A stretch of DNA of 20,622 bases from an uncultured Muribaculaceae bacterium (GTDB lineage Bacteria > Bacillota_I > Bacilli_A > RF39 > UBA660), in contig CAYJJI010000017.1 of NCBI GenBank assembly GCA_964370475.1, forward strand, positions 1 through 20,622. Direction: 5' to 3'. The notes below the pieces were generated by a model, which did no database searches, was not told where the DNA came from, and saw only the letters and a program-made list of their open reading frames with translations. The position numbers and the translations under genes are program-made. This document shows positions 3,583-20,622 of this stretch, piece after piece; the stretch's first letter is position 1; each line of letters starts with the position of its first letter.

Positions 3583-3621
3583 TAAAAAGATGATATAATT
3601 AATAAAGATAGAGGTGTGTAT

Positions 3622-5034: not shown

Positions 5035-5037
5035 AAA

Positions 5038-5064: not shown

Positions 5065-5065
5065 A

Positions 5066-5141
5066 TGGCGCCTGATGTAGGACTCGAACCTACGACCTAA
5101 CGGTTAACAGCCGTGTGCTCTACCAACTGAGCTAATCAGGC
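5066..5141 (-). tRNA. tRNA-Asn (anticodon GTT), 76 nt with the 3' CCA encoded.
   Basis: Reverse complement: GCCTGAT TA GCTC AGTTGGTA GAGC A CACGG CTGTTAA CCGTT AGGTC GTAGG TTCGAGT CCTAC ATCAGGC G CCA. The acceptor stem is a perfect 7 bp, and the D, anticodon and T arms all fold. U33 and A37 flank the GUU anticodon, and the discriminator is G. Confidence 0.9.
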
Positions 5142-5152
5142 ACTGCTATTAC

Positions 5153-5182
5153 ATTATATACTAAATAAATCATAAGTGTCAA
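5153..5182 (-). promoter_or_regulatory. Consensus sigma-A promoter for tRNA-Asn (TTGACA - 18 nt - TATAAT on the minus strand).
   Basis: The minus-strand sequence reads TTGACACTTATGATTTATTTAGTATATAATGTAATAGCAG, immediately upstream of the tRNA 5' end. Confidence 0.55.
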
Positions 5183-5251
5183 GAAAAAAAGTAAAAAAAA
5201 GAAAAATTTACTTAATTAAAGCTATATGATACAATGTTATTGGTGAATTAT

Positions 5252-6172: not shown

Positions 6173-6752
6173 GCAGTCCTTTTTTTTCTGTCAAAAAAAT
6201 GAATAATATCAAATATAAAGTACTAAATAAATAAGCAGCAACTACATCTGAAAAATAATGAACTCCCAAATAAATTCTAGAGCATCCAATTAATATTAAA
6301 ATAATACTAAGTCCAATATACATAAAAGAATGATACTTCTTATCAATTTTTTTACAAATTAAATAACACATATATCCATAAAAAGCAGTACTTATCATCG
6401 TATGTCCAGAAGGAAATGAATAGCCTAACTCATTATAAAATTCTATACCAACAGGCCTCTCTCTAAAAAATAATAATTTTAATAAATTATTTAGAATAAC
6501 AATATCAACTACTAAAACAATAATATTAACAACTTTATCTTTAAATAAAATCAAACTCAAAACACTGAAAATACCAATAAGTAATATTCCACCAAAATCA
6601 GTGATAAAATACATGAAACTAGTCATAAAATCGCTCTCAAAACCAATAATTAAATTATATATAAAATTATCTATATCAACAGTTAAATTAAAACATACTA
6701 ACCCACATATACAAACTAACAATAAACATAAAATTCCTATTAAATACTTCAT
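6159..6752 (-). CDS. PAP2-family membrane phosphatase (undecaprenyl-diphosphate / phosphatidate phosphatase-like).
   Basis: The three PAP2 signature motifs are present in order ([26 protein letters not shown]), with multiple TM helices. It is convergent with the Clp-like gene and overlaps it by 14 nt. Confidence 0.85.
6166..6188 (+). terminator. Putative terminator of the Clp-like gene (GGACTaagcAGTCC + T8), lying inside the 3' end of the convergent PAP2 ORF.
   Basis: A 5-bp stem is followed by an 8-T run directly after the TAA at 6170-6172. Confidence 0.4.
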
Positions 6753-6856
6753 AAATACCTCATACTATATATGATATCACATTAAAATAAGTAATAGAAC
6801 AAAAAGGTATGGAAAAATATCAAAGGTATAGTATAATACAACAAGAAGAGGTAGTT

Positions 6857-8605
6857 ATGAAAAAAAAGAAAAGACAAAAAAATACAGAAAATATTAAATA
6901 TATAAAAAAAGTATTAAAACAAATATTCAGTAATAAAAAACTAATGATTGGTTGGATAATAACACTAATATTAAGTGTTACAATAAACGCAATTACACCA
7001 CTAATTGATGCCAATATTTTAACGTCAATAACAAATTTTATCCCAAATAAAATAATTACTTTTTTACTGATAGCTTTAGGAATAAGATTATCTAATAGTA
7101 TTATAAATTACTATATAACGCTTATGACTGAAAAAGTAGAACAAGATCTAATTCTAAACCTAAAACACGATTTTACAAAAGAAGTTTATGATTTAGAGAC
7201 TAAAAACTTCGATAGAGAAGGTACAGGAGTATTTGCTGAAAGAATAAATAGTGAACCACCAGCAATTGCATATTCAATTTATGGTTTTAGATATAGAATA
7301 TTACAAATAGTAAGCTCATTAGGAGTATACGTATATCTATTGATAATTAGTTGGCAAATCGCTATATCAGTTGCTTTATCATCGGTAATATTGGTTATAG
7401 TAGAAAAGAAAAGAATATCAATATACAAAAAACATTCAGAGGAAAAAAATGTTCTAAACGAAGATAGATTCAGCGATTTCAACGAATTTATTAGAGGCGT
7501 AAGAGATATAAAAGTTCTAAATATAAAAGATTTTGTTTTGAAAAAAATATATCGTGATCAAAAGTATATAGCAGATAAAGACATTAATCACTTAAAAAAG
7601 ACTAAACTATTTGTAAATTTCTCTTACATATATAATGATTTATCAAAATTTCTTATAATTCTATTGGGTATATATTTAGTATATCAAAACGAATTAGTAT
7701 CAACGAATTTAATAATAATTTATGTATATTTAAATAAAGCATTATATTTATCTAGTGACATGACCCACTTATATGAAGAACTAGTAAATATAAATATTTC
7801 AGTTACAAGATTGACAGAAATAAACGATGAAGAAAAGTATCCAAAAGAAAAATTTGGAAATAAAAATATAAAAGTACTAGAAGGACAAATAAAATTGAAA
7901 AACCTAAACTTTGAGTACACTGAAGGTAACAAAGTATTAAAAAACATTAACTTAGAAATAGATAAAAATACAACTGTAGGTTTTGTAGGTGAATCCGGTC
8001 AAGGAAAAACAACTATCTTTAATTTAATTTCAAAACTATACCAAGTAGATGACAAGTCGCTTTTTATAGATGGTTATGACATAAATGAACTATCAGAAAA
8101 TTCAATAAGAAATAATATATCAGTTATCACCCAAAATCCATATATATTTAACACTACAATAAGAGAAAACTTAAAGATGGTAAATTCAAAAATCACAGAT
8201 GAAGAATTAAACAAAGTATTAAAAAGTTGCCAATTAGATAAATTTATTAAAGAACTAGAAAACGGATTAGACAGTAAAGTAGGAGAAGGTGGAGTTACAT
8301 TATCGGGAGGTCAAAGACAACGTTTAGCTCTTGCAAGAACAATGGTGAAAAAATCAAATATAATTTTATTAGATGAAGCAACAAGTGCTTTAGATAATAA
8401 AACACAAAATGAGATTCAAGAAGCTATTAAAGAAGTAGGTAAAGAAAAAACAATGTTAATTGTTGCGCATAGATTATCAACTGTCATAAATTGCGACAAA
8501 ATATTTGTTATTGATAATGGAAAAGTAATAAGCCAAGGAACACATAAAGAACTAATGAAAAGTTGCAAAAAATATAAAGAGTTATATCAAGTAGAAAAAG
8601 ATTAA
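6857..8605 (+). CDS. Fused permease/ATPase ABC exporter (6-TM domain + NBD), with no C39 peptidase domain.
   Basis: Motifs present are Walker A GESGQGKTT, ABC signature LSGGQRQRLALAR, Walker B ILLDEATSALD, and H-loop AHRLST. There are N-terminal TM segments. The RBS AGAGG precedes the ATG at 6857; the ORF track's ATG at 6809 overlaps a TATAAT box and is less likely. Confidence 0.85.
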   Translation: MKKKKRQKNTENIKYIKKVLKQIFSNKKLMIGWIITLILSVTINAITPLIDANILTSITNFIPNKIITFLLIALGIRLSNSIINYYITLMTEKVEQDLILNLKHDFTKEVYDLETKNFDREGTGVFAERINSEPPAIAYSIYGFRYRILQIVSSLGVYVYLLIISWQIAISVALSSVILVIVEKKRISIYKKHSEEKNVLNEDRFSDFNEFIRGVRDIKVLNIKDFVLKKIYRDQKYIADKDINHLKKTKLFVNFSYIYNDLSKFLIILLGIYLVYQNELVSTNLIIIYVYLNKALYLSSDMTHLYEELVNINISVTRLTEINDEEKYPKEKFGNKNIKVLEGQIKLKNLNFEYTEGNKVLKNINLEIDKNTTVGFVGESGQGKTTIFNLISKLYQVDDKSLFIDGYDINELSENSIRNNISVITQNPYIFNTTIRENLKMVNSKITDEELNKVLKSCQLDKFIKELENGLDSKVGEGGVTLSGGQRQRLALARTMVKKSNIILLDEATSALDNKTQNEIQEAIKEVGKEKTMLIVAHRLSTVINCDKIFVIDNGKVISQGTHKELMKSCKKYKELYQVEKD

Positions 8606-8639
8606 AAATCTATTTAAATTTTAATTTATATCTGATATA

Positions 8640-8655
8640 CTTATACTAGTATAAG
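8640..8655. promoter_or_regulatory. 16-bp perfect palindrome CTTATACTAGTATAAG overlapping the RBS of the 854-aa gene.
   Basis: The sequence is self-complementary and overlaps the TAAGGAG Shine-Dalgarno of the ATG at 8663. Confidence 0.35.
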
Positions 8656-8662
8656 GAGTAGT

Positions 8663-11227
8663 ATGAAAAATATAAAAAATAAACTATTTTATATTATCAT
8701 TGTATGTAGTGTATTGTTAGTGATTGTTTCAGTTGGTACTTATGCAAAATACATAGGTAACTCCATATGGGATTATTATATAGAAAGTCAAGGATTCTAC
8801 TTTTTCAGTGATAAATTAAGTGGTGAAAAAAATGTTAACAACGGATGGAATGGGACACCAGTATTATTTGACATAAGGAATTATAACGAAGAAAATGAAG
8901 TTTCAGACTTTCAAATAGAATATGAAATTACATGTACTATAACAAGCATTAATGCAAGCGATTTAGAATGTTCCGTAAACGGTTCAGGAACAAATACCTA
9001 CACAGGTGTATTAGAACAGACTAGAACATGCCAGAACACAAAAGGTGATGGAGTTAACACTTCGAATTTAAATGAATCAACTTGTACAAGTAGAGGATAT
9101 ACTTGGATAGATGGAAATACAAGTATTAATAATTTCTTTGAAATTAATAAAATAGACCCAAACACAGAAATTGGTGAAGTAACTGTTGAAATAGAAGCTA
9201 AATCATTATCACCATATAGTAAAACATTAAAGGGTGAATTTTATTTAAAAGAAAATGCAGCTATAGTAGAAGAAGAAATAATTTTTGAACATCAAAGTTA
9301 TAGTGATTACGAAAAAGTAATCATAACTAATAATTCATATAAAGACAGAACTTTCTTTCTAAGATGGGACCAAAATATATTAAGTATAGCTAAAGGAGAC
9401 TATATAATTTCCGGAGTTAGCTTAGGGAATATAAATGAAATTGAATTTGATATAGCAAAAGGTGAAACACTAACATATTCGTACTATAAAAAAAATAGTA
9501 GTGACGAAATAACTATCGAAGACTTCATTCTTCTTGATAAACCAGAACCACCAGCTATAAGGGTAAGCAGCATAGAACTATACTCAACAACTGGTGGAGC
9601 AGTAGAACTAAGTCCGGCAACATTTACTGAAGACACTACTAAAATAAACTTGTCCTTGCCTTCCGATACATCAACATTTACTTACGTAGTAACCATTGAA
9701 AATACAACAAATGATTATTACCATTTAAAGGGTATAGATCAACTACTAAATACCGCTAAAGCCGAAACAGTAACTAACGGTATGAGTTTATATCACGAAT
9801 TTGCACCAGGTACACTTTCGACATTTACCTTAACATATAAAGGAATATCAAATTTAACACAAAGTGAATTAGTATTAGAGGTACTATACGAATTCGCATT
9901 AGGTGAGGTGTATAAAGACGAAACTCTAAACGGAGCAACACCAGAGATTATAGATGGTCTAGTACCGATTAGTTATGATGAAACACTCAATGAATGGGTA
10001 AAAGCAGACTTAATAGAAAATGAATGGTATGATTATTCGATTATGAAATGGGCAAATGCCGCCAGCGTAATAAGCTCACAAAGAGACTTCTACACAGAAG
10101 CAGAAGCAGGAACTGTAGTAAGTATGGATCATATGACTTCAATGTTAGTGTGGATACCAAGATATTCATACACTATAAGAGAGACATTAGGATTCCATGT
10201 TCCAGGTGCTGGAAGTGTAAGTTTAACTACACCAGGAGCAATAGATATAATATTCCCTGGTATAGAAACTACCCACTTAGGAAGTGCTACTTATACAGGA
10301 ACAGAAGCAGAAAATTACTATACACCATCATCATTTTGTTGGGGTAACTCATGTGATGACCCAACAACGAGAAGTGATGAAGAAAATGAAGAAATAAAAG
10401 GATTTTGGATAGCTAAATTTGAAGCATCAAAAGTTAATAACATATTATATTCAAAACCAAACATGACACCAATGATTAATTATACAATTGCTGCTACATT
10501 CTATTATGTTCAAGAATTAATGAATGGAACTAACGGATACAATAACTACGGCTACGTAGGATATGTTGATGCTCACTTAATTAAAAATACAGAATGGGGA
10601 GCAATTGCATACTTAAGCCAATCTATTTATGGAAAATATGGAAATCCAGACTATACAGGAGCAAATAAAGAAATTTATTTAAATACATGTAGTACATATC
10701 GAACTGGAATAGGGGGATCATCAGCAGCAGATGGAAGAACTACAGCTTCTTGTTATAACTCTGATCATATGTATGATTCTTACAACGGAATGGGAGCATC
10801 AACTACAGGAAATATCTATGGAGTATACGACATGATAGGTGGAACGTTTGATAGAGTTATGGGAATAGTTTTAGGCCCTAATGGAGAGTTTATCCCAGAT
10901 TTATCAGGATTTACATCACTTCCAGAAGGAAGATATATTAACATATATCCTTATGGAACATACACTCAAGGTGATATATCACCGATTAAAGGTGATGGGC
11001 TTACAGAAACATTATATTTTTACAGTGATAGATATCTAGGAGATCCTAGGTTCTCATCCACTAATTATTATGACTATCATTGGTTATATAGAGGAGGAAG
11101 TTTATTTTTCTCAAACACAGCAGCCAACGGAATATTTTCTTATACTTTATTTAATGGCCAAGCTGATTCTCATCATTCATCAAGATTTACAATAACAATG
11201 ACAGGCTCACTAGTAACTAGTTTATAA
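8663..11227 (+). CDS. Large secreted or cell-surface protein (854 aa) with a TasA/camelysin-like N-terminal signal/motif region, a ~500-aa Thr/Ser/Asn-rich central region, and a C-terminal FGE/SUMF1-like (formylglycine-generating-enzyme family) domain.
   Basis: There is an N-terminal hydrophobic segment. The motifs GTYAKY and FYFFSDKLSGEKNVNN resemble the TasA/CalY GGGTFAFFSDKEVSNN region. The C-terminal region carries FGE-family hallmarks: FWIAKFEAS, NTEWGAIAYL (compare TEAEWEYAA), GVYDMIGGTFDRV (compare YDMSGNVWEW) and YRGGSLF (compare RGGSW). It lies 57 bp downstream of the ABC exporter and is probably in the same operon. Confidence 0.5.
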   Translation: MKNIKNKLFYIIIVCSVLLVIVSVGTYAKYIGNSIWDYYIESQGFYFFSDKLSGEKNVNNGWNGTPVLFDIRNYNEENEVSDFQIEYEITCTITSINASDLECSVNGSGTNTYTGVLEQTRTCQNTKGDGVNTSNLNESTCTSRGYTWIDGNTSINNFFEINKIDPNTEIGEVTVEIEAKSLSPYSKTLKGEFYLKENAAIVEEEIIFEHQSYSDYEKVIITNNSYKDRTFFLRWDQNILSIAKGDYIISGVSLGNINEIEFDIAKGETLTYSYYKKNSSDEITIEDFILLDKPEPPAIRVSSIELYSTTGGAVELSPATFTEDTTKINLSLPSDTSTFTYVVTIENTTNDYYHLKGIDQLLNTAKAETVTNGMSLYHEFAPGTLSTFTLTYKGISNLTQSELVLEVLYEFALGEVYKDETLNGATPEIIDGLVPISYDETLNEWVKADLIENEWYDYSIMKWANAASVISSQRDFYTEAEAGTVVSMDHMTSMLVWIPRYSYTIRETLGFHVPGAGSVSLTTPGAIDIIFPGIETTHLGSATYTGTEAENYYTPSSFCWGNSCDDPTTRSDEENEEIKGFWIAKFEASKVNNILYSKPNMTPMINYTIAATFYYVQELMNGTNGYNNYGYVGYVDAHLIKNTEWGAIAYLSQSIYGKYGNPDYTGANKEIYLNTCSTYRTGIGGSSAADGRTTASCYNSDHMYDSYNGMGASTTGNIYGVYDMIGGTFDRVMGIVLGPNGEFIPDLSGFTSLPEGRYINIYPYGTYTQGDISPIKGDGLTETLYFYSDRYLGDPRFSSTNYYDYHWLYRGGSLFFSNTAANGIFSYTLFNGQADSHHSSRFTITMTGSLVTSL

Positions 11228-11229
11228 AA

Positions 11230-11256
11230 TTGATAATTAAAATTATCAATTTTTTT
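11230..11256 (+). terminator. Terminator of the 854-aa gene (TTGATAATTaaAATTATCAA + T7).
   Basis: A 9-bp perfect stem is followed by TTTTTTT. Confidence 0.6.
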
Positions 11257-11260
11257 ATAT

Positions 11261-11286
11261 AAAAAAAGATAGATAATTATCTATCA
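11261..11286 (-). terminator. Terminator of the minus-strand HD gene (A7 + GATAGATAATTATCTATC palindrome).
   Basis: The palindrome overlaps the stop codon of the convergent gene and is followed by a T-run on the minus strand. Confidence 0.45.
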
Positions 11287-12063
11287 ATTATTACTTATAA
11301 AATCATCGATATATTGGAGTACAAAACACCTTAATTCTTCCATAGTATTTTTAGTAGTAACATTTTTATAATTAATTCTATCAATAATTATATTTATATA
11401 ATTATTATTTCTAATAACTTCAACACAATATTTATAATTAAAATCAAAGATAAATGCAATATAAGAAATCCAAATATCTAAAGCGGTTTTCCTAGTAGAA
11501 CTTAGTATTGTTGATTTACTATAAAAAGATTTTAATACATCATCGGATATAACATCGAACTCCAATACATTATCTATTAACTTAGGACTCATAGATAACT
11601 TGTCTTCAAAGCTCTTAACTCTAAAATTATCTAATTTATCAGCATCTCTAATAATTTTAGCAAATAACAACATTCTTTCATCACTTACTTTTTCAATTTC
11701 AAATTTATTGTGATTCAAAATAGCAAAACTAATAATATCATCAAATTTATTAGTATCTATATATTTTCTAATGTAATTATCTTCAAAAAGAAGATTTACA
11801 CCATGAACAGCATGATTAAATCTACCAGCATCCATCTCTCCTAAAAACCTGATCTCATCAAATCTTCCAATATCATGTAATAAACCAATTAACTTTGCTA
11901 ATTCAATATCAGATTCACAAAGACTAAGATTATTTGCAAGAGCTTCACAATCATTCATCACATGAAATGTATGCTTAACTTTATTTTTAGTACTTATATC
12001 GTTCATATCAAATAAACTAACATATTCATTAAACTCACTAACTGCTTTTTTAAAATCTATCAT
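11284..12063 (-). CDS. HD-domain metal-dependent phosphohydrolase.
   Basis: The His/Asp motif series HTFHVMNDCEALA, LIGLLHDIGRF, HAVHG and IRDADKLD is present. Confidence 0.75.
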   Translation of the reverse strand: MIDFKKAVSEFNEYVSLFDMNDISTKNKVKHTFHVMNDCEALANNLSLCESDIELAKLIGLLHDIGRFDEIRFLGEMDAGRFNHAVHGVNLLFEDNYIRKYIDTNKFDDIISFAILNHNKFEIEKVSDERMLLFAKIIRDADKLDNFRVKSFEDKLSMSPKLIDNVLEFDVISDDVLKSFYSKSTILSSTRKTALDIWISYIAFIFDFNYKYCVEVIRNNNYINIIIDRINYKNVTTKNTMEELRCFVLQYIDDFISNN

Positions 12064-12085
12064 ATAACAACCTCTTACATAAAGT

Positions 12086-12116
12086 ATAACATTAAAGTAA
12101 ACGTTTATGTTATAAT
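12086..12116. promoter_or_regulatory. Nested palindrome (ATAACAT-taaag-TAAACGTTTA-tGTTAT) overlapping an extended -10 (TGtTATAAT) in the divergent HD / NT5C promoter region.
   Basis: A 10-bp perfect palindrome TAAACGTTTA is flanked by the 7-bp inverted repeat ATAACAT/ATGTTAT. TGTTATAAT follows immediately. Confidence 0.35.
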
Positions 12117-12148
12117 AATGTAATTAACAAAGTGATTAGGAGATAAGT

Positions 12149-12709
12149 ATGAAGAAACTAATTTTAGATGTAGATGATGTAATAACAGGTGGAACATTTC
12201 TAAATGCTATTAACGAATTTTTAAATACTAACTACAAAGAAGATGAAGTAAAGAATTATTACATTCAAGATTTACTAGGAGAAAAAAAGGACGAATTTTT
12301 TGAAAAATTCGAAGAAATAGATCTATATAAATCAGCAAAATTATATGATAATTGTTATGACGTATTAAAAAGACTAAACGAAAAATATGACATTTACCCA
12401 TGTTCCGCATTCGTTTGGAGAGAAGTACCAGAAAAGAGCAGTGGAAACTTAAAAAATAAATACGATTTTCTATACAAAGAGTTACCATTTATTGACCCAA
12501 ATAAATACATATTCACAACTAGTAAAAATATAATAAAAGCTGACATAAGAATAGATGACAAAATGGAAAATTTAACAGATGCAAATCTAAATATATTATA
12601 TACAGCTTACCATAATAAAAACATCAACCAAGAAGAATTAGATAAGAATAATATCATTAGAGCAAATAATTGGCTAGAGATAGAAGAAATAATAAATAAT
12701 TACCAATAG
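12149..12709 (+). CDS. 5'(3')-deoxyribonucleotidase-like HAD hydrolase (NT5C family).
   Basis: The N-terminal DxDxV/T motif (LILDVDDVITGG) is present, the length is about 186 aa, and an RBS AGGAGA precedes the start. Confidence 0.6.
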   Translation: MKKLILDVDDVITGGTFLNAINEFLNTNYKEDEVKNYYIQDLLGEKKDEFFEKFEEIDLYKSAKLYDNCYDVLKRLNEKYDIYPCSAFVWREVPEKSSGNLKNKYDFLYKELPFIDPNKYIFTTSKNIIKADIRIDDKMENLTDANLNILYTAYHNKNINQEELDKNNIIRANNWLEIEEIINNYQ

Positions 12710-12751
12710 TAGAAAAAATAGAAATACAATAATTAAGTAGGAGATAATAGA

Positions 12752-13417
12752 ATGAAAACCAAAGAAAAACACACCTTTATCGCAGATAACACAGGGAAAA
12801 TTCACGCATACCAAGGAGATAGTGAAAATTCAAAAAGAACTAAAATTTATATAAAAAGAATTGGAAAATCAACATTCATAATTGAAGGTGAAGAAACAAA
12901 AAATTGTGTTTTATCTTTTTTTGGTCTAATTGAATATATTAATGAAATAGCAAATATTGAAAATGAAATAATAGTTAGAAATTTATCTAGAGCTAATGTT
13001 GGTGCAATATTGAAATTATGTAATGAAAACAAAGAAAGAGAAAATCAAGAAACTGATCACAATCACAGCCAAGCACTTGCAATTGAAATAGCAAATAGAA
13101 GATTAATTGAATTGTTTGGAATCACTTATGAAGAATTCAGTAATTTAACTTGCCTAGAACAGAACGAATTAATGGAGATAATATATGCTAAAAAAGAAGA
13201 AAAAGATACAAATAAGGTAATGATTGAATCAGGAGATAATGCGTTATTCATCAAGAAAAAACTAGATGAAAAAGTAATGCTAGCTGATGGAACTTTCGTG
13301 AAAGTAGGAGATAATCCTTATCAAAGTAGAAAAAGAATAGATGAAAAACTAGATGAAATGGTTAATGAAAAAGAGTCGTTTGTAAGAAAATTAATTAAAA
13401 AAGTTGGTAGAAAATAA
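12752..13417 (+). CDS. Hypothetical cytoplasmic protein (221 aa). Its 3' end and terminator are duplicated at 14.9 kb.
   Basis: RBS is AGGAGA, and the protein has no TM segment or signal peptide. The last ~10 codons plus the hairpin (AAAGTTGGTAGAAAATAACTTCTATCAA) recur at 14914-14946. Confidence 0.5.
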   Translation: MKTKEKHTFIADNTGKIHAYQGDSENSKRTKIYIKRIGKSTFIIEGEETKNCVLSFFGLIEYINEIANIENEIIVRNLSRANVGAILKLCNENKERENQETDHNHSQALAIEIANRRLIELFGITYEEFSNLTCLEQNELMEIIYAKKEEKDTNKVMIESGDNALFIKKKLDEKVMLADGTFVKVGDNPYQSRKRIDEKLDEMVNEKESFVRKLIKKVGRK

Positions 13418-13436
13418 CTTCTATCAATTTTTTTAT
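13398..13436 (+). terminator. Hairpin terminator, a variant of the array hairpin family (AAAAAGTTGGTAGAA-aataac-TTCTATCAA + T7).
   Basis: The stem has one G-T wobble and is followed by TTTTTTT. It overlaps the stop codon of the 12752 gene. Confidence 0.6.
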
Positions 13437-13479
13437 ATACAAATGAATAATATGATAAAATACAATTAAAGAAGCTAAT

Positions 13480-13611
13480 ATGAATATTGAAAAAATATAT
13501 AGTAAATTAAACGAAAATATACGCTTAACTTTTGCAATAGTTAATAATCAAAACAACAAAAAAAGAATAGCTCATTTAAGAGCATATGAGAAAATAGAAT
13601 ATATTTTATGA
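13480..13611 (+). CDS. Possible 43-aa small ORF (MNIEKIYSKLNENIRLTFAIVNNQNNKKRIAHLRAYEKIEYIL). Weak.
   Basis: It is an ATG-initiated ORF in an otherwise ORF-free 420-bp gap, with only a weak AAAGAAG RBS. It is not in the supplied ORF track. Confidence 0.15.
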   Translation: MNIEKIYSKLNENIRLTFAIVNNQNNKKRIAHLRAYEKIEYIL

Positions 13612-13840
13612 CAATGTTCGCAACATCATTTTGTAACGAACTAAAACAATATAATGAAGTATTAATATGAGGTATGAGTAGTAATTCTAAAGTAGATCAC
13701 GACGAGTAAGGATTTCCTATATTTGAAAAGGGATATGCAAATAATATGACTGGTAAAATAGAGTGTAACAGCAATACTTCATTTAATAAATTAAATGTGC
13801 TATAATTAAAAGGTAATTAAAAATTGCTTTTGGAGGAAAA

Positions 13841-14536
13841 ATGAAAAATAAAAAAGGATTAAAAATAATTTTAGGTATTGTAGGAGTTATATTATTAATT
13901 TTCGCATACTTTATAAGTAGAGATTTAAATCAAGAAGACACACTAAGAGATACAATAAACAATTATATAGAAAATCAGATTGTACCAGATAAACCAAGTA
14001 CATCAGGAGAATACTATAAAATTGAAAAAGAAATTTTGAATTATTTAACAACTACTAGTAAATATACAGAAGAATTAACAGCTATTTTTAAAGAAATATA
14101 TGATTTTGAATTTTATTATTCTACTCATGCCTATGAGTCATTAAAAGATGACTTCAGTGCTGATTTAGAAAAAATAGAAAAGCTTAAAAATAATTTAAAT
14201 AATAAAATAAATCAATTTATAGAATTAAATAATTATGAAACATTACTAGAAAAGCATAATAGTGATGATGAATACTATAATGACTTATATATAGAACTTC
14301 TAGGAAGTGAAGAAGAATTTGATAATGTAAATAAATCATACAATGAAATTAAAACTATATATACAGATTATTTTATTAATGCTAATAATTATATCGAATT
14401 TTTAAAAAATTCATCACTTACTATTGATGATAATAAAGAAAATATGACATTTGATACTGATGAAGAAATCTCTAAATATGGACAATTAGCAGATGCATTA
14501 AACCTTAGTCTAGGTGAAATTGTAGCCACTGATTAG
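13841..14536 (+). CDS. Hypothetical membrane-anchored protein (N-terminal signal-anchor/TM followed by an acidic Asn/Glu/Tyr-rich extracytoplasmic domain).
   Basis: RBS is GGAGGA, and a hydrophobic segment LKIILGIVGVILLIFAYFI follows a Lys-rich N-terminus. Confidence 0.5.
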   Translation: MKNKKGLKIILGIVGVILLIFAYFISRDLNQEDTLRDTINNYIENQIVPDKPSTSGEYYKIEKEILNYLTTTSKYTEELTAIFKEIYDFEFYYSTHAYESLKDDFSADLEKIEKLKNNLNNKINQFIELNNYETLLEKHNSDDEYYNDLYIELLGSEEEFDNVNKSYNEIKTIYTDYFINANNYIEFLKNSSLTIDDNKENMTFDTDEEISKYGQLADALNLSLGEIVATD

Positions 14537-14594
14537 TTAAGAAACTATATTAATCTTAAAAATAAAATTAGTATTAGATATAGGAAAACCAAGC

Positions 14595-14935
14595 TGTCAT
14601 TTTATAAATGATAGAGGTACTTCGTCATATCACAATCATCCTAACAAATCAGCTAAATATGCATATGATATATTAAATAGACTAGATTATGAAAATGATT
14701 ATATCAAAAAAATAGTTTCTTGATAAAAGAACATGATACAAAAATAACAATAGATAATATAAAAGAATTTTATATAGAACCGTTAAATCTACTGATAAAA
14801 GTTCAAACAGCATATGCTTATGCACATCGTCCTGATTATTAAAAAAAAGAATCAAATATATTAGCAAATTTAAAGAATTAATTAAAACTAAAGTTGAAAA
14901 TAAAAAGTTAAATAAAGTTGGTAGAAAATAACTTC
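14595..14935 (+). pseudogene. Decayed gene remnant. Three short reading-frame fragments are separated by stops/frameshifts, and the last fragment (...KVENKKLNKVGRK*) is paralogous to the C-terminus of the 12752 gene (...VNEKESFVRKLIKKVGRK*).
   Basis: The translated fragments are LDIGKPSCHFINDRGTSSYHNHPNKSAKYAYDILNRLDYENDYIKKIVS*, KEHDTKITIDNIKEFYIEPLNLLIKVQTAYAYAHRPDY* and KKESNILANLKN*/LIKTKVENKKLNKVGRK*. The 3' terminal ~30 nt plus the hairpin are near-identical to 13401-13431. Confidence 0.4.
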
Positions 14936-15014
14936 TATCAACTTTATTTTTATAATAGGATTGTTTTAACACTAGATGTTAACTTATTTAAATAGAGAAT
15001 AACTCTAATATTTT
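14915..15014 (+). repeat. Inter-cassette repeat module, copy A (hairpin AAAGTTGGTAGAA..TTCTATCAACTTT + a more divergent conserved block ...GTTTTAacactAGaTGTTAACTTatTTAAATAGAGaATAACTCTAAtATTTTATAA).
   Basis: It aligns with the modules at 17317, 18449, 19317 and 20526. TATAAT follows at 15034-15039, then the RBS AGGAGATGAGG and a GTG start at 15064. Confidence 0.7.
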
Positions 15015-15063
15015 ATAATTCAACATAATTTGCTATAATATAATTAATTTAGGAGATGAGGCT

Positions 15064-16281
15064 GTGGCACAAATAAACGTTAAAGAATTAAATGATTATT
15101 TTAAATCTAAAAAAACTGGTTCAATGGAATTATTTTTTAAATACAAAAATGAAGAGTACGCTTTAACGTTGTATTTAGAAAAAGAAAAAGTATCTTTTCA
15201 AAAAATAAGTAAAGAGAATACCGATAAAGAAAAATATTATTACAACATTAATGATTTATTAAATGAAGAATATATTAATAAAGAAAAACTTATAGATATT
15301 TTTGATAAGTTCAATTTTTATGAAGAGTATAGTATAGAAGAAATTAAAAAAAATATTATTTCAAAAAAAGTGTATAGTTTATCAGGAAACATGTTAGATG
15401 GAATTAATGTATTTATAAATAACAAAAAAGCTGTATATAAATACAAACTTAATGAAAATAAAATAACCTTACAATTGAAAAATTATGTAGGTTTTAAAAA
15501 TTTAGAAGTAGTTTACGATGAAAATATATATCTTCATTTAAATAATGGCATAAATAATAATTATATCGATCCATGGAAATTTACTGTCGACTTAAAAAAA
15601 GAAATTAAAAAAATTATAATTATTGAATTTGAAATAAACTATAAATATTTTGTAAAAACAGTTTTCAAGTATATAAATAAATTTTTAGATAAAGATAATT
15701 TACTTTTAGAAATGAAACTGTTAAAAAATTTCAACATCTTTAATAATTATGCAGACGAAGTGGATAATCTCATATCTGAAATAGATTCTAAATCAATTAT
15801 AGATTTATTATTAGAAGAAAATAACGAATATGATAGAATATGCAAACTATTAATAAATAGTGAAATGTATAAAGAATTATATAATAAAATAGACTATAAA
15901 GATAAAATGTTAATTATAACTAATTATATTTCTTGTCCAAAACCTTTTGAAGTAAATCAAGAAGAATTTAATAAATTAGTAGAATCCGCAATTGAGTATA
16001 AAGTATCATTAGAATCTGTATGGAGACTCGCAATGTCTTATGATATGAGAAATTTAAACTATGATATAATTGATAGATTCTTTATAGATAAAAAAGATAT
16101 TTGGTATTTGGGTGAATATATAAGCGGAGTACAACAAATCAACACAGAAAATATAATAAATCTAATAATTAATACCAAAGATATTGAATATATAACTAAT
16201 ATACTTAATGATGAATGGGTTATAAATCATTTCAATAAAAATTGCATAGAAAAGTTAAAAAAGTATATAGAAAAAAGTTGA
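15064..16281 (+). CDS. Hypothetical cytoplasmic protein (405 aa, Asn/Lys/Ile-rich) with no recognised domain. GTG start.
   Basis: It is a long ORF with a strong RBS, and its stop codon is embedded in the left arm of the next hairpin. Confidence 0.5.
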   Translation: MAQINVKELNDYFKSKKTGSMELFFKYKNEEYALTLYLEKEKVSFQKISKENTDKEKYYYNINDLLNEEYINKEKLIDIFDKFNFYEEYSIEEIKKNIISKKVYSLSGNMLDGINVFINNKKAVYKYKLNENKITLQLKNYVGFKNLEVVYDENIYLHLNNGINNNYIDPWKFTVDLKKEIKKIIIIEFEINYKYFVKTVFKYINKFLDKDNLLLEMKLLKNFNIFNNYADEVDNLISEIDSKSIIDLLLEENNEYDRICKLLINSEMYKELYNKIDYKDKMLIITNYISCPKPFEVNQEEFNKLVESAIEYKVSLESVWRLAMSYDMRNLNYDIIDRFFIDKKDIWYLGEYISGVQQINTENIINLIINTKDIEYITNILNDEWVINHFNKNCIEKLKKYIEKS

Positions 16282-16357
16282 TAGGCATTAAATACATCAA
16301 CTTTTTTATTCGAAATTATTGTATAACAACTTAACTTCCTAATTGAAATAATTAGTA
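16271..16357 (+). repeat. Inter-cassette repeat module, degenerate copy (hairpin AAAAAAGTTGAT-aggcattaaatac-ATCAACTTTTTT, plus a remnant of the conserved block AACTTAACTTCCTAATTGAAATAATTAG).
   Basis: The outer 11 bp of the stem are conserved while the inner AGA/TCT part is replaced. The downstream block retains AACTTCCT..TTGAAATA. Confidence 0.55.
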
Positions 16358-16363
16358 GAAAAA

Positions 16364-16392
16364 TTGACTTTTTAAAAGTTATTAAATATAAT
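16364..16392 (+). promoter_or_regulatory. Near-consensus sigma-A promoter (TTGACT - 17 nt - TATAAT) for the 16423 gene.
   Basis: The sequence is TTGACTttttaaaagttattaaaTATAAT, with the RBS AAGGGAGA following. Confidence 0.5.
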
Positions 16393-16422
16393 ACACTTTA
16401 TATAAAAAGGGAGAAAAACTAT

Positions 16423-17313
16423 ATGAATAATTTATTTAATAGAGCTTTCATAACTGTAGATACAGCTAATTTGAAAAAAGAATTGGAAATTCCGATTCAA
16501 AGACCCAGAGGAATTTCTTTTAAACCTCGTAAAGGATTATGGGCAACCACTTATATTGGTGAAGATGGTAATATATGTGACTGGTTAAATTATATACAAA
16601 AATATCATAGAAATATGATGTTTAATAAAGCTTGTATCTTCACTTTAAAAAAAGATGCAAATATATATACTATAGACAATGTTGATTCAGTTATACAAGC
16701 TAGCATAAAATATCCTTCATTACATCATAAATTATTGCAATGTAATTCTTCTTTTAAACGCTCATTACCTAATAAGTTACCAATTAATTATGAAGCACTA
16801 CTTGATGAATATGATGGTGTTTACATAAATTTAGAAAATTTACCACATCAAATGTTAATTGAAGATGGTGAATTTAATAGGTTTGATGTTAATTCCTTAA
16901 TTATCTCAAATATAGATAGTATTGAACATTATCAAAGCTTGGCGTTATCAAAGGATGAAAACAATTTATATTCTATTTCTAGTATAAGTGAACACAAGCA
17001 TATTTCTTCATTAAACCCATTGTTTCTGTCAATTTTAGAAGAACTTAAAAATAAAGTTCAATTAGAAATAGAAAATAATCAATATTATCAATTACAAGAA
17101 AATTATGAAGACTGTTATAGAGAACTTGATGATTTAATTCATAGAGCAATCAATCGTATTTATTATCAATATGAAAGTGATTTTCATCAATTGAACTATG
17201 AATTAATGTGTAATGGATTTTACCCAATACAAGTTGTTATGTCACAAATAGTATTATCTGAACAACTAAGAAAAGGGGACCAAACTTACTTTAGAAGATA
17301 TTTAAATAAATGA
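16423..17313 (+). CDS. Hypothetical cytoplasmic protein (296 aa) with no recognised domain.
   Basis: ORF with RBS AAGGGAGA. It is immediately followed by an array hairpin. Confidence 0.5.
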   Translation: MNNLFNRAFITVDTANLKKELEIPIQRPRGISFKPRKGLWATTYIGEDGNICDWLNYIQKYHRNMMFNKACIFTLKKDANIYTIDNVDSVIQASIKYPSLHHKLLQCNSSFKRSLPNKLPINYEALLDEYDGVYINLENLPHQMLIEDGEFNRFDVNSLIISNIDSIEHYQSLALSKDENNLYSISSISEHKHISSLNPLFLSILEELKNKVQLEIENNQYYQLQENYEDCYRELDDLIHRAINRIYYQYESDFHQLNYELMCNGFYPIQVVMSQIVLSEQLRKGDQTYFRRYLNK

Positions 17314-17316
17314 ATT

Positions 17317-17420
17317 AAAAAGTTGATAGAAATTTAATCTATCAACTTTTATTATCTTAATAGGCGGTTTTAGTTGAAGTGGTTAACTTCATTTAAATAG
17401 CGTATAACTAAAATATTTTA
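17317..17420 (+). repeat. Inter-cassette repeat module, copy B (hairpin AAAAAGTTGATAGA-aatttaa-TCTATCAACTTTT + block taataggcGGTTTTAGTTGAAGTgGTTAACTTCaTTTAAATAGcGTATAACTaaAatATTTTa).
   Basis: It has a 13-bp perfect stem and a T-tract, and the conserved block aligns with copies C, D and E. An extended -10 TGaTATAAT lies at 17437-17445, and the RBS is TAGGAGA. Confidence 0.75.
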
Positions 17421-17492
17421 AACCTTTAATAGGTTGTGATATAATTTAACTGTATTAAAAATAAAAGTAAAAAAATTAATAGGAGATAAATA

Positions 17493-18449
17493 ATGAAAAA
17501 CAAAGAATATTTTTTTAAAATAATAATAAATTATTTAAATAAAAACAAAAAAATTAGAGTTAACAGATTTATTCAAAGTTTATATGATCAATATGGATAT
17601 GGTTATGACGAAATAAGCGATGCTAATTTATTGATGAGTTTACAAGGCTATAATATGAATTTAGAAATTCCTCTCTTAGCTACTGGGCAAAATGGTTATT
17701 TTAATGACCAAATAGAAAAAAATGGACTAACATCACAAACTTTAGATGAACAGGACTTAGAAGATGCAAAATTTATAGCAGAAAGTTTTGGGAAAAATAC
17801 AAATTATGGAAACAACAATGTTCCAATAAACTATATTACAATGCTCGGGTCTACTGAATTTAATTATGCTTCACAATCTTTTCCAGCAGGAATTTTGGAA
17901 GATGTTTTTCAGTGTAGTCCTAATCGAGATTTCCCTATACAATTGATTTTGGGTGAAAGAGAACAAGATTTTTATTTAAGATTGTTACATTTCCAAATGA
18001 AAAACATTGAAACTTTTGATACAAATAAAGAAATAGAAGTAATTAATAGAGCCAGAAGATTATTAGAAAATTTTTGTAAAAATAAAAACAGAGTATATAT
18101 AATTGGATTGGATGATGTTTTGAATTGCAAAGCTGCTGCTGGAGATGTTCTTGGTCTTAGAGATGGCAGTTTATCAAATGAAGAAGCGATAAACAAAATA
18201 GAATCTTTAGATACTTTTGAACAATTATTAAATAGTTTTAATATAGATTCAACAAACATGTTTCATGATCAAAATCTAAACGGAGAATATGGAATTTCTG
18301 TATATAGTCCAATACCTAGGAATAAATTAAGTTATATCGAAGTAGAAAGATCTTATATTTTATTGCAAAAGAGAGCCTTCGATTTAGGTTACAAGATTGG
18401 TGATGAAATATTAATACATGAAAAATCACAAGAACAACACATTAAATAA
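17493..18449 (+). CDS. Hypothetical cytoplasmic protein (318 aa) with no recognised domain.
   Basis: ORF with RBS AGGAGA. It is followed by an array hairpin. Confidence 0.5.
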   Translation: MKNKEYFFKIIINYLNKNKKIRVNRFIQSLYDQYGYGYDEISDANLLMSLQGYNMNLEIPLLATGQNGYFNDQIEKNGLTSQTLDEQDLEDAKFIAESFGKNTNYGNNNVPINYITMLGSTEFNYASQSFPAGILEDVFQCSPNRDFPIQLILGEREQDFYLRLLHFQMKNIETFDTNKEIEVINRARRLLENFCKNKNRVYIIGLDDVLNCKAAAGDVLGLRDGSLSNEEAINKIESLDTFEQLLNSFNIDSTNMFHDQNLNGEYGISVYSPIPRNKLSYIEVERSYILLQKRAFDLGYKIGDEILIHEKSQEQHIK

Positions 18450-18550
18450 AAAAGTTGATAGAATCTAATCTATCAACTTTTATTTTCCTAATGAACAGTT
18501 TTAGTAGAAGTTGTTAACTCATTTAAATAGAGTATAACTCTAACATTTTA
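18449..18550 (+). repeat. Inter-cassette repeat module, copy C (hairpin AAAAAGTTGATAGA-atctaa-TCTATCAACTTTT + block taatgaacAGTTTTAGTaGAAGTTGTTAACTcaTTTAAATAGAGTATAACTCTAACATTTTATAAATGCAA).
   Basis: The block contains the perfect palindrome TAGAGTATAACTCTA. Two -10 boxes follow: TATAAT at 18560-18565 and a TATGATACAAT element around 18612-18622. Confidence 0.75.
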
Positions 18551-18653
18551 TAAATGCAATATAATTTGTTAATCAATTTATAAAGTAAAGTATAATTCTG
18601 ATTTTGATTAAATCAATGATGTATGATACAATAACACTTAGGTGAATGTACTG

Positions 18654-19271
18654 ATGAATGAACAAATGTATAAAAATTTTGTCTATTGTTGTAATAGTGT
18701 AGCTATACAATTACACTTTGACAATAGTAATGATGGATATATCAATAATTTATTAGCTTTTGAAAATCATGATGGAACTTTTATAGATACAATTACTAAA
18801 AATAATAATATTATTAAAGGAACGCACTATGGTGTTTGTTTCACTATGGCTTGTTATATATTTAATTTGCTTACTGAGATGGGAGCTGAAGAATATTATT
18901 TAATGTCTTCTTCTAATGGTAGAGAACCAAATACGGTTGTTTTATATAAATATGATAATGAATATAAGATATGTGATTTAGGTAGAGGAGTTGTATTTTT
19001 CGAACGAAAAATTAATGATTTATTTGAAGGTTTAATTTCAAATGTAGTAGATATAAGTGATATGCAAAGTTTAAATGATTTAAAAACAGAAATAGGAAAT
19101 CAAAAATTTTATGATATATCGGTTGACGAGTATATAAAAATATATCCTAAAATAACTTGTGATGTTATATTACATAGTGGTAACGAAGATAAGCCATTTT
19201 TTGAAATTCCAAGAGTAAATATAGAAGAGTTTATACAAAATAAATTAAACAGTTCTAAAAGTGTTAAATAA
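18654..19271 (+). CDS. Hypothetical protein (about 205 aa; start ambiguous among ATG 18642, 18654 and 18666), with a possible Cys-centred motif (HYGVCFTMACY).
   Basis: GGTGA is at 18636-18640, and the spacing favours the ATG at 18654. No confident domain assignment can be made. Confidence 0.4.
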   Translation: MNEQMYKNFVYCCNSVAIQLHFDNSNDGYINNLLAFENHDGTFIDTITKNNNIIKGTHYGVCFTMACYIFNLLTEMGAEEYYLMSSSNGREPNTVVLYKYDNEYKICDLGRGVVFFERKINDLFEGLISNVVDISDMQSLNDLKTEIGNQKFYDISVDEYIKIYPKITCDVILHSGNEDKPFFEIPRVNIEEFIQNKLNSSKSVK

Positions 19272-19288
19272 TTTAAGAAGAATAAACT

Positions 19289-19316
19289 TTGACACATTAT
19301 AACAATTATATATAAT
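19289..19316 (+). promoter_or_regulatory. Consensus-like promoter (TTGACA - 16 nt - TATAAT) located immediately upstream of the copy-D hairpin.
   Basis: The sequence is TTGACAcattataacaattatataTATAAT. Transcripts would start inside or at the hairpin. Confidence 0.3.
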
Positions 19317-19412
19317 AAAAAAGTTGATAGAAATTAATCTATCAACTTTTATTTTTTTAATGGGGCAATTTTACTTGAAGTTGCTAACTTCCTTTAAATA
19401 GAGTATACCCGA
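19317..19412 (+). repeat. Inter-cassette repeat module, copy D (hairpin AAAAAAGTTGATAGA-aattaa-TCTATCAACTTTT + block taatggggcAaTTTTAcTTGAAGTTGCTAACTTCCTTTAAATAGAGTATAcCCgaAtATTTcgTAAATGCAAG).
   Basis: The inverted repeat GAAGTTgctaAACTTC is perfect here. An extended -10 TGaTATAAT lies at 19438-19445. Confidence 0.75.
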
Positions 19413-19462
19413 ATATTTCGTAAATGCAAGAAAATTTGATATAATTAATACGGGTGAAGAAT

Positions 19463-20008
19463 ATGGAAACACTTTATACTAGCAGACTAATATTAAAAAA
19501 AGGTAATTTAGATGATTATAAAAAAGTCTTTGAATACGACTTTAAAAAATTAATGAATGTTGATAATGTATTTGAATATGTAAAAAAAGATGACGATATT
19601 AGCGTTAAACAGTTAGAAATTATGGTTAATAGACCAGAAGAAAAAGATTATTATGAATATATAATATATCTAAAAGATACAAACGAACCAATTGGTCATA
19701 TTATTGCAGATAGAAAAAATAAAGAATATAATGCATTAGAACTAGGCTATGATTTACACCCTGATTATTGGAATAATGGATATATGACAGAGGCAACTGT
19801 TAAATTTATTAACTTTTTATTTTCAAGAGGTTATGATAATGTTTTAAGTGGATATGCAAAAGGTAATTTTAAATCCAAAGGATTACTAGAAAAACTAGGA
19901 TTTAAAGAATTTGAAGAGGGAATAATGTATGTATCACCAACAAAAACTGTTCCACAGTATCATTGTATATTAAGTAAAGATATTTTTATGAAGACTATTA
20001 TTATGTAG
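19463..20008 (+). CDS. GNAT-family N-acetyltransferase (RimJ/RimL-like, Acetyltransf_3 type).
   Basis: The GNAT core reads ...NALELGYDLHPDYWNNGYMTEATVKFINFLFSRGYDNVLSGYAKGNFKSKGLLEKLGFKEFEEG. GGGTGAAG precedes the ATG at 19463 (the ORF track's GTG at 19454 is less likely). Confidence 0.75.
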   Translation: METLYTSRLILKKGNLDDYKKVFEYDFKKLMNVDNVFEYVKKDDDISVKQLEIMVNRPEEKDYYEYIIYLKDTNEPIGHIIADRKNKEYNALELGYDLHPDYWNNGYMTEATVKFINFLFSRGYDNVLSGYAKGNFKSKGLLEKLGFKEFEEGIMYVSPTKTVPQYHCILSKDIFMKTIIM

Positions 20009-20037
20009 GTAAATGGTCAAGAGAAGTAGAAAACTTT

Positions 20038-20514
20038 ATGTATTCATTTTGTGAAATATATCCAATTGAAGATGGAGAAGTACCAGAATATATTTTTATG
20101 GATGATAAAGTAAACAGAGCATTTAAATTATGTGAAAAAACAAACGAAAATGTTATTAGAATAGCTATATATAATGTGAAAGGTGAAGTTGTATATGAAA
20201 AAAAGTATGTGGTATATACAAATGAAAATATAAATTCTGAAATTACTGAAAAATTATATAGATTATGTGTTGATAACTATGATAGAATAACTCCAAGTGA
20301 CAAATATAGGGATAAGGTATTAAAATTACTAAAAAAAGATTTAGAAAATTTTGAATGTATTGTAGCAATATATGAGGATGATAATTTAATAGGATATTCA
20401 GCAGGTAATGGATACCTTGAACAGATTTGTGTTGTAAAAAAATATGATAATAGAAAGTTAAAAAAAGTATTGATTGATTATATATCGGAAAATAAATTTT
20501 TAAAAATAAAATAA
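20038..20514 (+). CDS. Hypothetical small protein (158 aa), possibly a second GNAT-like fold (weak), co-transcribed with the upstream acetyltransferase.
   Basis: It starts 30 nt after the GNAT gene with no intervening repeat module. The C-terminal segment LIGYSAGNGYLEQICVVKKYDNRKLKKVLIDYI is loosely GNAT-like. Confidence 0.35.
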   Translation: MYSFCEIYPIEDGEVPEYIFMDDKVNRAFKLCEKTNENVIRIAIYNVKGEVVYEKKYVVYTNENINSEITEKLYRLCVDNYDRITPSDKYRDKVLKLLKKDLENFECIVAIYEDDNLIGYSAGNGYLEQICVVKKYDNRKLKKVLIDYISENKFLKIK

Positions 20515-20525
20515 TAAACGAGAAA

Positions 20526-20622
20526 TAAAAAAGTTGATAGAAACTAATCTATCAACTTTTATTTTCCTAATGGGGCAGTTTTAGTTGAAGTTGCTAACTT
20601 CCTTTGAATAGAGTATAACTCA
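20526..20622 (+). repeat. Inter-cassette repeat module, copy E (hairpin AAAAAAGTTGATAGA-aactaa-TCTATCAACTTTT + block taatggggcAGTTTTAGTTGAAGTTGCTAACTTCCTTTgAATAGAGTATAACTCa), truncated by the window end.
   Basis: It is near-identical to copy D over 90 nt. Confidence 0.75.

Follow-up and report, generated by a model that had tools for sequence, protein, structure and literature searches.

What does a non-coding sequence do when it is conserved and repeated between genes that are unrelated to one another? The question is raised by a contig of 20,622 nucleotides (nt) from the metagenome-assembled genome (MAG) of an uncultured bacterium with very AT-rich DNA, deposited as Muribaculaceae and placed by GTDB in Bacilli_A (RF39; UBA660; GenBank assembly GCA_964370475.1, contig CAYJJI010000017.1); this whole contig is referred to below as the window. 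Towards its right-hand end a block of ~60 base pairs (bp) with two inverted repeats (IR1 and IR2) recurs in five copies (A–E), which the initial annotation had interpreted as an operator shared by the downstream promoters or as a transcribed, structured leader. Our comparisons suggest that the block is probably the core of a repeated spacer of ~130 bp and not an operator for the genes on its right. The explanation that we prefer, and to which we give about an even chance, is a composite module that would combine a terminator, a small RNA (sRNA) gene and divergent promoters, would resemble the promoter-early stem-loops (PeSLs) of phages and may supply homology for the exchange of gene cassettes.

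A degenerate pattern of 23 positions matched the block five times in the window, always on the plus strand (14964, 17368, 18499, 19369 and 20579), and had no match in 100 shuffled sequences; MAFFT alignments gave the same consensus, and on both counts the five copies and the consensus described earlier are borne out. The window indeed ends within copy E, as expected for an assembly break in a repeat. The block pattern, run against 185,579 species genomes, returned four further contigs (L001–L004), and reading of the loci together with a profile search gave 13 copies from the five fragmentary assemblies, with nothing beyond these 13 found by the profile in 257 kb of retrieved sequence. A perfect 13-bp hairpin between an A-run and a T-run (AAAAAAGTTGATAGA-loop-TCTATCAACTTTT) precedes each block at ~15 nt, and the gap between hairpin and block is constant within ±1 nt in the 13 copies. 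A pattern scan identified the hairpin as an intrinsic terminator on both strands (nine sites found against 0.7 expected), and a repeat finder returned hairpin and block as a single 94-nt family. The proposal of a shared, selected non-coding block stands, with the correction that the conserved unit is larger than was described: its left end is the A-run of the terminator hairpin (at 19314, for example), and in some copies it extends through the plus-strand −10. Besides A–E, the window holds two partial copies, a decayed one (X, 16271–16392) and one reduced to the hairpin (Z, 13397–13433).

Read on the minus strand, the right half of the block has the form of a sigma-70 promoter, TTGnnn-N17-TATACT. 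The alignment of the copies decays past ...AACTC, and a 'CAA' is kept at a fixed distance. The predicted −10 is TATACT in nine copies, with the variants TATAAT, TATGCT, TATTCT and TATACG; the TA at positions 1 and 2 is invariant, the T at position 6 and the form TAnnnT are each present in 12 of the 13 copies, and changes fall mainly at positions 3–5, which is the pattern expected of a working −10. Upstream of it, TTG is found in nine of the 11 complete copies (at 17 nt in seven and 16 nt in two), among them L2a/L4, L3a and L3b, whose spacers, the first 6 nt excepted, resemble neither one another nor those of the other copies. Because TTGNNN-N17-TANNNT has a frequency in the window of 9e-4 per position (TTG occurs at 1.3% of positions) and these spacers cannot be aligned, three independent retentions of TTG in the same register are unlikely to reflect chance.

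The transcript predicted from this promoter (AAAGGAAGUUAGCAACUUC AACUAAAACUGCCCCAUUAAGAAAAUA AAAGUUGAUAGA..UCUAUCAACUUUUUU) would be ~80 nt long and start ~7 nt past TATACT. In the fold of the consensus 82-mer, IR1 forms a 5′ hairpin, which is followed by an unpaired stretch (AACUAAAACUGCCCCA) and the terminator, with an energy of −19.1 kcal/mol compared with −7.6 ± 2.6 for shuffled sequences (z = −4.5). The A6 run 5′ of the hairpin, which would furnish the U-run of the minus strand, is ~95% conserved irrespective of the upstream coding sequence. With promoter-like conservation, a terminator with a U6 run and no open reading frame (ORF), the unit is a candidate gene for a trans-acting sRNA. 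Inspection of the aligned copies showed no ORF kept on either strand, in line with the earlier view that no leader peptide is conserved, and the mini-ORF of copy D, previously given as MGQF and a stop, has 13 codons (MGQFYLKLLTSFK, then stop).

The module is highly conserved between species. Window copy E and copies L3b and L4, from three species, are 96–97% identical from the A-run through ...AGTATAACTC (E is 97% identical to the copies from the two other species), whereas the tRNA-His genes of L003 and L004 agree at 66 of 76 positions (87%) and the conserved N-terminal part of ParB is 81% identical in nucleotides and 70% in amino acids between L001 and L002. The genes beside the near-identical copies are unrelated to each other, and co-transfer of a unit with its gene therefore does not explain this identity. 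Copy E is closer to the foreign copies than to A (74%), B (86%) and C (90%) on its own contig, and the G+C content of the block is ~0.33, against 0.12–0.15 in other intergenic DNA. Taken together, the comparisons suggest that the module is either under strong purifying selection, or homogenised, or mobile by itself.

Relatives of the block are confined to a small group. The block pattern had no match in JGI metagenomes or IMG/VR; the hairpin pattern matched 20 metagenome loci, all of them ordinary terminators without the block, and none in IMG/VR; and blastn against plasmid and phage collections did not find the block, its sole match being a hairpin-like stretch in a C. perfringens plasmid. 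These results make the block specific to this clade of uncultured gut Bacilli. Homologues of NT5C and of a 405-aa protein encoded in the window lie on contigs from more distant Bacilli, which contained no module. The four contigs belong to MAGs of one project that are labelled Muribaculaceae, which looks like a batch mis-assignment because they have ~25% G+C and Bacilli-type genes; one homologue is named 'Bacilli bacterium'.

The copies in the window, their parts and the genes between them are as follows.

13397–13433, unstranded: copy Z, a terminator hairpin of the same variant type as that of A (92% identical) with no block behind it.
14911–15039, unstranded: module copy A, the most diverged, 74% identical to E (nhmmer E-value 3e-19); hairpin 14917–14942 (variant, one G·T pair), block 14950–15023, plus-strand TG-extended TATAAT 15034–15039; minus-strand −10 TATTCT 14996–15001 and −35 TTGAAT 15018–15023, spacer 16 nt.
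14911–14989, minus strand: predicted RNA of copy A, diverged, with IR1 lost.
16271–16392, unstranded: copy X, a decayed module with ~55% identity to the other copies; hairpin GTTGATAGG..ACATCAAC 16277–16301, remnant 'AACTTAACTTCCT', strong plus-strand promoter TTGACT-17-TATAAT 16364–16392.
17313–17445, unstranded: module copy B; hairpin 17322–17346, IR1 17376–17390 (GAAGTGGTTAACTTC, 5+5), plus-strand TGATATAAT ending at 17445; minus-strand −10 weakened to TATACG 17401–17406, no TTG −35.
17314–17394, minus strand: predicted RNA of copy B, with weakened promoter and possibly inactive for that reason.
18445–18565, unstranded: module copy C; hairpin 18454–18477, IR1 (1-nt deletion) 18507–18520, IR2 palindrome 18528–18542; minus-strand −10 TATACT 18531–18536 and −35 TTGCAT 18554–18559, spacer 17 nt.
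18445–18524, minus strand: predicted RNA of copy C, with IR1 and the C-run degraded.
19314–19445, unstranded: module copy D; hairpin 19323–19346, IR1 19377–19391, plus-strand TGATATAAT ending at 19445; minus-strand −10 TATACT 19402–19407 and −35 TTGCAT 19424–19429, spacer 16 nt.
19314–19395, minus strand: predicted ~80-nt RNA of copy D, presumed to start ~7 nt past the −10; 5′ hairpin from IR1, unpaired AAGUAAAAUUGCCCCAUUAAAAAAAUA, terminator and U-run.
20524–20622, unstranded: module copy E, truncated by the contig end; hairpin 20533–20556, IR1 20587–20601, minus-strand −10 TATACT 20612–20617.
20524–20605, minus strand: predicted RNA of copy E, with the consensus sequence.
15064–20514, plus strand: mutually unrelated cassette genes between the modules, at 15064–16281 (405 aa), 16423–17313 (296 aa), 17493–18449 (318 aa), 18642–19271 (209 aa) and 19454–20008 (GNAT) with 20038–20514 (158 aa).

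Judged from ORF translations, positions 1–12,700 of the window carry ordinary chromosomal genes (among others, those for an NrdD fragment, a pseudouridine synthase, an SPFH protein, tRNA-Asn and an ABC transporter), and from ~13.4 kb onwards these give way to short plus-strand transcription units with unrelated products. Apart from the GNAT protein, the cassette products of the window had no match in Pfam, NCBIfam or PADLOC, and three of them had none among PDB sequences. Across all loci, the families that could be named from these databases were GNAT, NUDIX, TfoX_N and an extracytoplasmic function (ECF) sigma factor; the remaining genes are ORFans. In both L001 and L002 the array directly follows parB, with entirely different gene content, and two gene families recur across arrays in different positions. 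The 405-aa window gene has a homologue of 61–63% identity in the L002 array, with different neighbours, and one of the L002 genes has a frameshifted homologue beside tRNA-His in L004. Copies L2a and L4 have in common the block and a further 40 nt that include the plus-strand promoter; their homology ends just past the −10, and the genes downstream differ. The units thus bracket, in essence, the transcribed part of each gene.

Several observations concern the surroundings of the arrays. The 405-aa protein belongs to a ~300-aa family whose gene, in more distant Bacilli (L011 and L014), is single, chromosomal and syntenic, flanked by a prepilin-type N_methyl gene and a Coat_F gene, so at least one cassette gene has core-genome relatives. 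In the window, the 45-nt gap between the stop codon of 18642–19271 and hairpin D holds a perfect TTGACA-16-TATAAT (12 of 12 positions; 19289–19316, plus strand), from which a transcript would begin right at the terminator hairpin; this is a feature of copy D only. Just ahead of copy A (14560–14890), an HD-domain gene survives as remnants interrupted by in-frame stops; these duplicate, in part and in inverted orientation, the intact HD gene at 11284–12063 (minus strand). Positions 13434–13840 also look like degraded coding sequence. The terminator of parB in L001 (1690–1725; GTTAATAGA..TCTATTAAT) is a hairpin variant of the module type, carries compensating G:C-to-A:T changes and lacks a block, and that of parB in L002 is unrelated to it. 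Both the window and L002 (4998) end inside a module copy, and L001 (5286) ends ~1.1 kb past its last copy, still in the array; the ~100-bp repeat evidently breaks short-read assemblies, and MAGs therefore probably understate both the length and the number of the arrays.

In the composite module that we favour, the block would be the central part of an intergenic unit of ~125–150 bp with four parts. The first would be a bidirectional intrinsic terminator (A6-GTTGATAGA-loop-TCTATCAAC-T4) that ends the upstream cassette gene, and the second, formed by the left two-thirds of the block, the body of a short minus-strand gene (GGGGCAG TTTTAG TT-GAAGTTGCTAACTTC-C). The third part would be the sigma-70 promoter of that gene, with its −10 TATACT as the reverse complement of the AGTATA within IR2 and its −35 TTGcat as the reverse complement of the ATGCAA that closes the consensus of the initial annotation; the fourth, in the ancestral form of the module, would be a back-to-back TG-extended −10 serving the next plus-strand cassette gene. 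If the minus-strand promoter fires and its RNA accumulates, the ~80-nt product would comprise a 5′-proximal hairpin (GAAGUU-AGC-AACUUC), ~27 unpaired nt (AACUAAAACUGCCCCAUUAAGAAAAUA), the terminator hairpin and a U6 run. Its 3′ part, from GCCCCA onwards, has its homologue in the neighbouring tRNA-His gene (3′ end, trailer and terminator). The rightward TG-extended −10 lies ~10 nt past the leftward −35, and the two promoters would probably compete for polymerase. Insulation of the cassettes could then come from the terminator, from an RNA that is antisense to read-through transcripts and from a fresh promoter. Because it is the sole homology common to otherwise unrelated cassettes, the module may also act as a substrate for cassette gain, loss and swap by recombination, as PeSLs do in T4-type phages.

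A number of observations count against this explanation. The predicted minus-strand −35 hexamers match three of six consensus positions (the TTG only), and a generic promoter scan of the window did not list the minus-strand promoter sites. The IR1 stem is unchanged, with no pair that shows a double change, while its loop varies (AGC, AGA, GGC, AACC); the terminator shows one covarying pair (G:C to A:U and to U:A, as two independent double changes); and overall 94% of cells are paired, although most of the pairs are invariant. The C-run of the unpaired stretch (GCCCC) is ~79% conserved, the left arm of the L1c terminator has two mismatches even though its block is at consensus, and the G·T pairs of the variant hairpins (A and Z of the window and L1a) would function in the plus sense only. 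Finally, among the 13 copies from five fragmentary assemblies, no recombination event was directly caught.

The strongest alternative, which we nevertheless regard as unlikely, starts from the link to tRNA-His that also forms part of the composite reading. The arrays in L003 and L004 end at this tRNA (4481–4594 and 5417–5529), which lies on the strand of the predicted RNA and whose CCA end is followed by the linker and hairpin of the module; the profile match to the unit stops there exactly at GGGGC (GCCCCA on the RNA strand). CCA end, trailer and terminator hairpin are common to this tRNA and every module copy, and the 3′ ~50 nt of the predicted RNA are therefore homologous to that end of the tRNA-His locus. 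The unit may have arisen from a tRNA-His locus, or the hairpin plus CCA may be the core of a tRNA-directed insertion site. The tRNA-Asn of the window (5066–5141, minus strand) has a similar CCA-TTAA trailer and a different hairpin. Under the second possibility, hairpin and GCCCCA would be an att-like core taken from the tRNA-His 3′ end, the block would be the arm bound by a recombinase encoded elsewhere, and small mobile cassettes would have been inserted serially, as in integrons. Such serial insertion predicts the order observed (gene, hairpin, block, cassette, hairpin, block, ..., hairpin, tRNA), in which both tRNA-His loci bound an array and the tRNA takes the place of a block after the last hairpin; it also accords with the near-identity of units across species, with conserved IR1 half-sites around a variable spacer and with unrelated accessory genes such as chromosomal integrons typically carry (GNAT, NUDIX, a methylase fragment, ORFans).

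Other features fit such a site poorly. No integrase or recombinase gene is present in the window or L001–L004, where every array is cut by a contig end, and each cassette has its own −10. The attC cores R'' (RYYYAAC) and R' (GTTRRRY) are found on neither strand of the consensus unit, no R''..R' pairs occur in the window, and the unit has no XerD-type arm (TTATGTnAAnT; two of 11 positions), the only match in the window lying outside the array (11747, minus strand). Arrays also follow parB (L001 and L002) and, in the window, NT5C/HD genes; the right-hand limit of homology varies (after ACTC, after TTG or after the plus-strand −10), leaving no single crossover point; and although GCCCCA, trailer and terminator recur at tRNA-His in L003 and L004, only 6 nt of the tRNA itself are shared.

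Less likely again, in our view, is that IR1 and/or IR2 make the block an operator or activator site co-regulating the cassette promoters, or that the block is a transcribed 5′ leader. The plus-strand promoters are as first described: the TATAAT boxes and TG extensions are real (A, 15034–15039; B, 17440–17445; D, 19440–19445) and a −35 is lacking, as an activated promoter might show, with the amendment that A is TG-extended as well as B and D. In five copies (A, B and D of the window, L2a and L4) the TG-extended −10 lies 32–33 nt past AGTATA, which would put IR1, with its conserved half-sites, near −70, a plausible position for a class I activator. The distance from the block to the next plus-strand −10, however, ranges from 23 to ~165 nt: L1c and L3b are 94–97% identical to the consensus with promoters ~72 and ~165 nt away, and L1b (L001:3121) and L3a (L003:194) have no plus-strand promoter and are followed by the 3′ end or stop codon of a convergent minus-strand gene. 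The genome scan suggested earlier for defining a regulon did recover the block in four other MAG species, yet those two copies lack a plus-strand gene downstream. The block is thus fixed to the terminator and not to the promoters as an operator would be. It also lies after a strong terminator and before the plus-strand −10, and therefore outside the plus-strand mRNA unless the terminator is read through, which disfavours a leader.

The inverted repeats themselves need revision. IR1 is perfect in D (19377–19391) and E (20587–20601), as stated, with a spacer of 3 nt (GAAGTT-GCT-AACTTC) and not 4; partial pairing holds for B (5+5, 17376–17390), in C one nucleotide of the 3′ arm is deleted, and in A IR1 is degenerate. 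IR2 is, as reported, a perfect 6+3+6 palindrome in C (18528–18542) and 5+5 in A, but across the five genomes it is perfect in only two of 13 copies (window copy C and L1c); most copies read TAGAGTATAACTCAA, and GAGT-ATA-ACTC is all that is retained. IR2 is therefore not a conserved feature, which argues against it as a palindromic operator. IR1, with conserved half-sites and a variable spacer, could equally well be the DNA palindrome of a dimeric protein, and in that case the candidate sites would be IR1 and TAGAGTATAACTCTA. The arrays contain no regulator gene save the ECF sigma factor of one L003 cassette, for which the expected motif is absent. By eye (no motif scan was made), the block matches no alternative-sigma motif, ECF-type or other; for an ECF-type promoter, neither spacing nor −10 is suitable.

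The weakest alternative, a selfish or relic dispersed repeat (resembling miniature inverted-repeat transposable elements (MITEs) or repetitive extragenic palindromic (REP) sequences, or the residue of an old duplication) that carries a terminator and looks promoter-like through AT-richness, has a slim chance in our view: the units are palindromic and intergenic, just past stop codons, like REP/bacterial interspersed mosaic elements and Correia-type elements, and window copies A and X, L1a and L3a are clearly decaying, but identity of 96–97% across species exceeds that of tRNA-His and argues for constraint, a 14-copy alignment shows by inspection no terminal inverted repeats or target-site duplications, no transposase occurs in the window or the L001–L004 loci, and the copies are few (four exact-pattern loci in 185,579 species genomes, none in the JGI metagenome, viral, phage or plasmid collections) and confined to accessory-gene arrays instead of being scattered among core genes.

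Among known systems, the composite module comes closest to the PeSLs of T4-type phages, terminator/promoter motifs that flank ORFans and, through homologous recombination, let modules be shuffled (Arbiol et al. 2010, PMC2839356; Comeau et al. 2014, PMC4122927). Both are small composites of a terminator and a sigma-70 promoter, repeated between unrelated and mostly ORFan genes of hyperplastic regions; both span the stretch from the stop codon of the upstream gene to the 5′ untranslated region of the next; and both have been proposed as transcription insulators and as homology for modular shuffling. A TG-extended −10 follows the terminator ahead of the cassettes in A, B and D of the window and in L2a and L4. 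Unlike PeSLs, the present module resides in bacterial chromosomes (uncultured Bacilli), is longer (~130 bp) and has an additional conserved core of ~60 bp, an opposite-facing promoter and a predicted sRNA; and whereas mini-circles and exchanges between close relatives (indels or replacements) help to define PeSLs, the signs of exchange seen here are indirect ones, in the differing cassette content after parB in L001 and L002 and in the gene families that recur across arrays. Integrons and the rAID-1 elements of Bacteroidales (Ross et al., bioRxiv 10.1101/471110) likewise combine unrelated accessory genes in one orientation with a partly palindromic, clade-conserved non-coding repeat, but the arrays described here have no IntI or XerD-family recombinase beside them and no attC core sites. 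Cassettes with their own promoter and terminator, and a repeat with a promoter-like unit on the opposite strand, further set them apart.

Firmicutes have several multicopy sRNAs, such as LhrC1-5 and the rli22 clan of Listeria and the pneumococcal csRNAs. The predicted RNA is like these in size (~80–110 nt), in its 5′ stem-loop, unpaired C-containing stretch and terminator and in having several near-identical copies per genome, but it matches none in sequence or structure, and its copies are interleaved with cassette genes instead of free-standing. Rfam 15 reported nothing at E ≤ 1 for positions 12000–20622 bar chance microRNA matches, and for a single unit its best match was rli22, at 18 bits against a threshold of 80 bits and on the opposite strand. 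A tRNA- or tmRNA-like gene was also rejected: the sole tRNA that ARAGORN reported in the window was tRNA-Asn, with tRNA-His as the one in L003 and L004, and the likeness of IR1 to a T-arm was unconvincing by eye. A mimic of the tRNA-His acceptor stem, in which GGAAGUU pairs at six of seven positions with the AACUGCC before CCA, is supported by no variant copy, and the IR1 hairpin is more stable.

A last comparison concerns Xer sites. The sequence ACTTCCTTTAA resembles the XerC arm of B. subtilis dif at nine of 11 positions. On a contig from a more distant, spore-forming member of the Bacilli, three tandem repeats of ~1.26 kb lie beside a Zip transporter gene (L014:3071–6143), each with a dif-like motif (CTTCCGGTATATTATGTAAAAT) whose XerD-type arm is canonical. 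These repeats have the appearance of Xer-dependent insertions in tandem, of the IMEX or dif-module kind, and are unlike the present module. Xer-dependent dif modules and IMEX (integrative mobile elements exploiting Xer; PMC6449649) also consist of small one- or two-gene units bounded by a repeated short site, but the sites described here stand in direct and not alternating orientation.

Should the composite reading be wrong, the module would still be a clade-specific conserved non-coding element held under unusually strong constraint, 97% identical across species where tRNA-His is 87% identical. In its strongest form, which we put forward tentatively as an unlikely but consequential possibility, this clade would build arrays of mobile single-gene cassettes with a previously undescribed ~130-bp, tRNA-His-derived module that encodes a new multicopy sRNA and that insulates cassettes and mediates both capture and exchange of them in place of attC and IntI. 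To our knowledge, low-GC Gram-positive bacteria lack classical integrons. If correct, the arrays would be a Gram-positive counterpart of integrons and phage PeSLs that is independent of an integrase or uses a new recombinase, with a new multicopy sRNA that has an odd tRNA-His-like 3′ end. Since a ~100-bp repeat breaks short-read assemblies, such arrays would be systematically under-represented in MAGs, and those described here would offer a concrete and testable example of the organisation, and possibly the exchange, of accessory-gene arrays in these bacteria.

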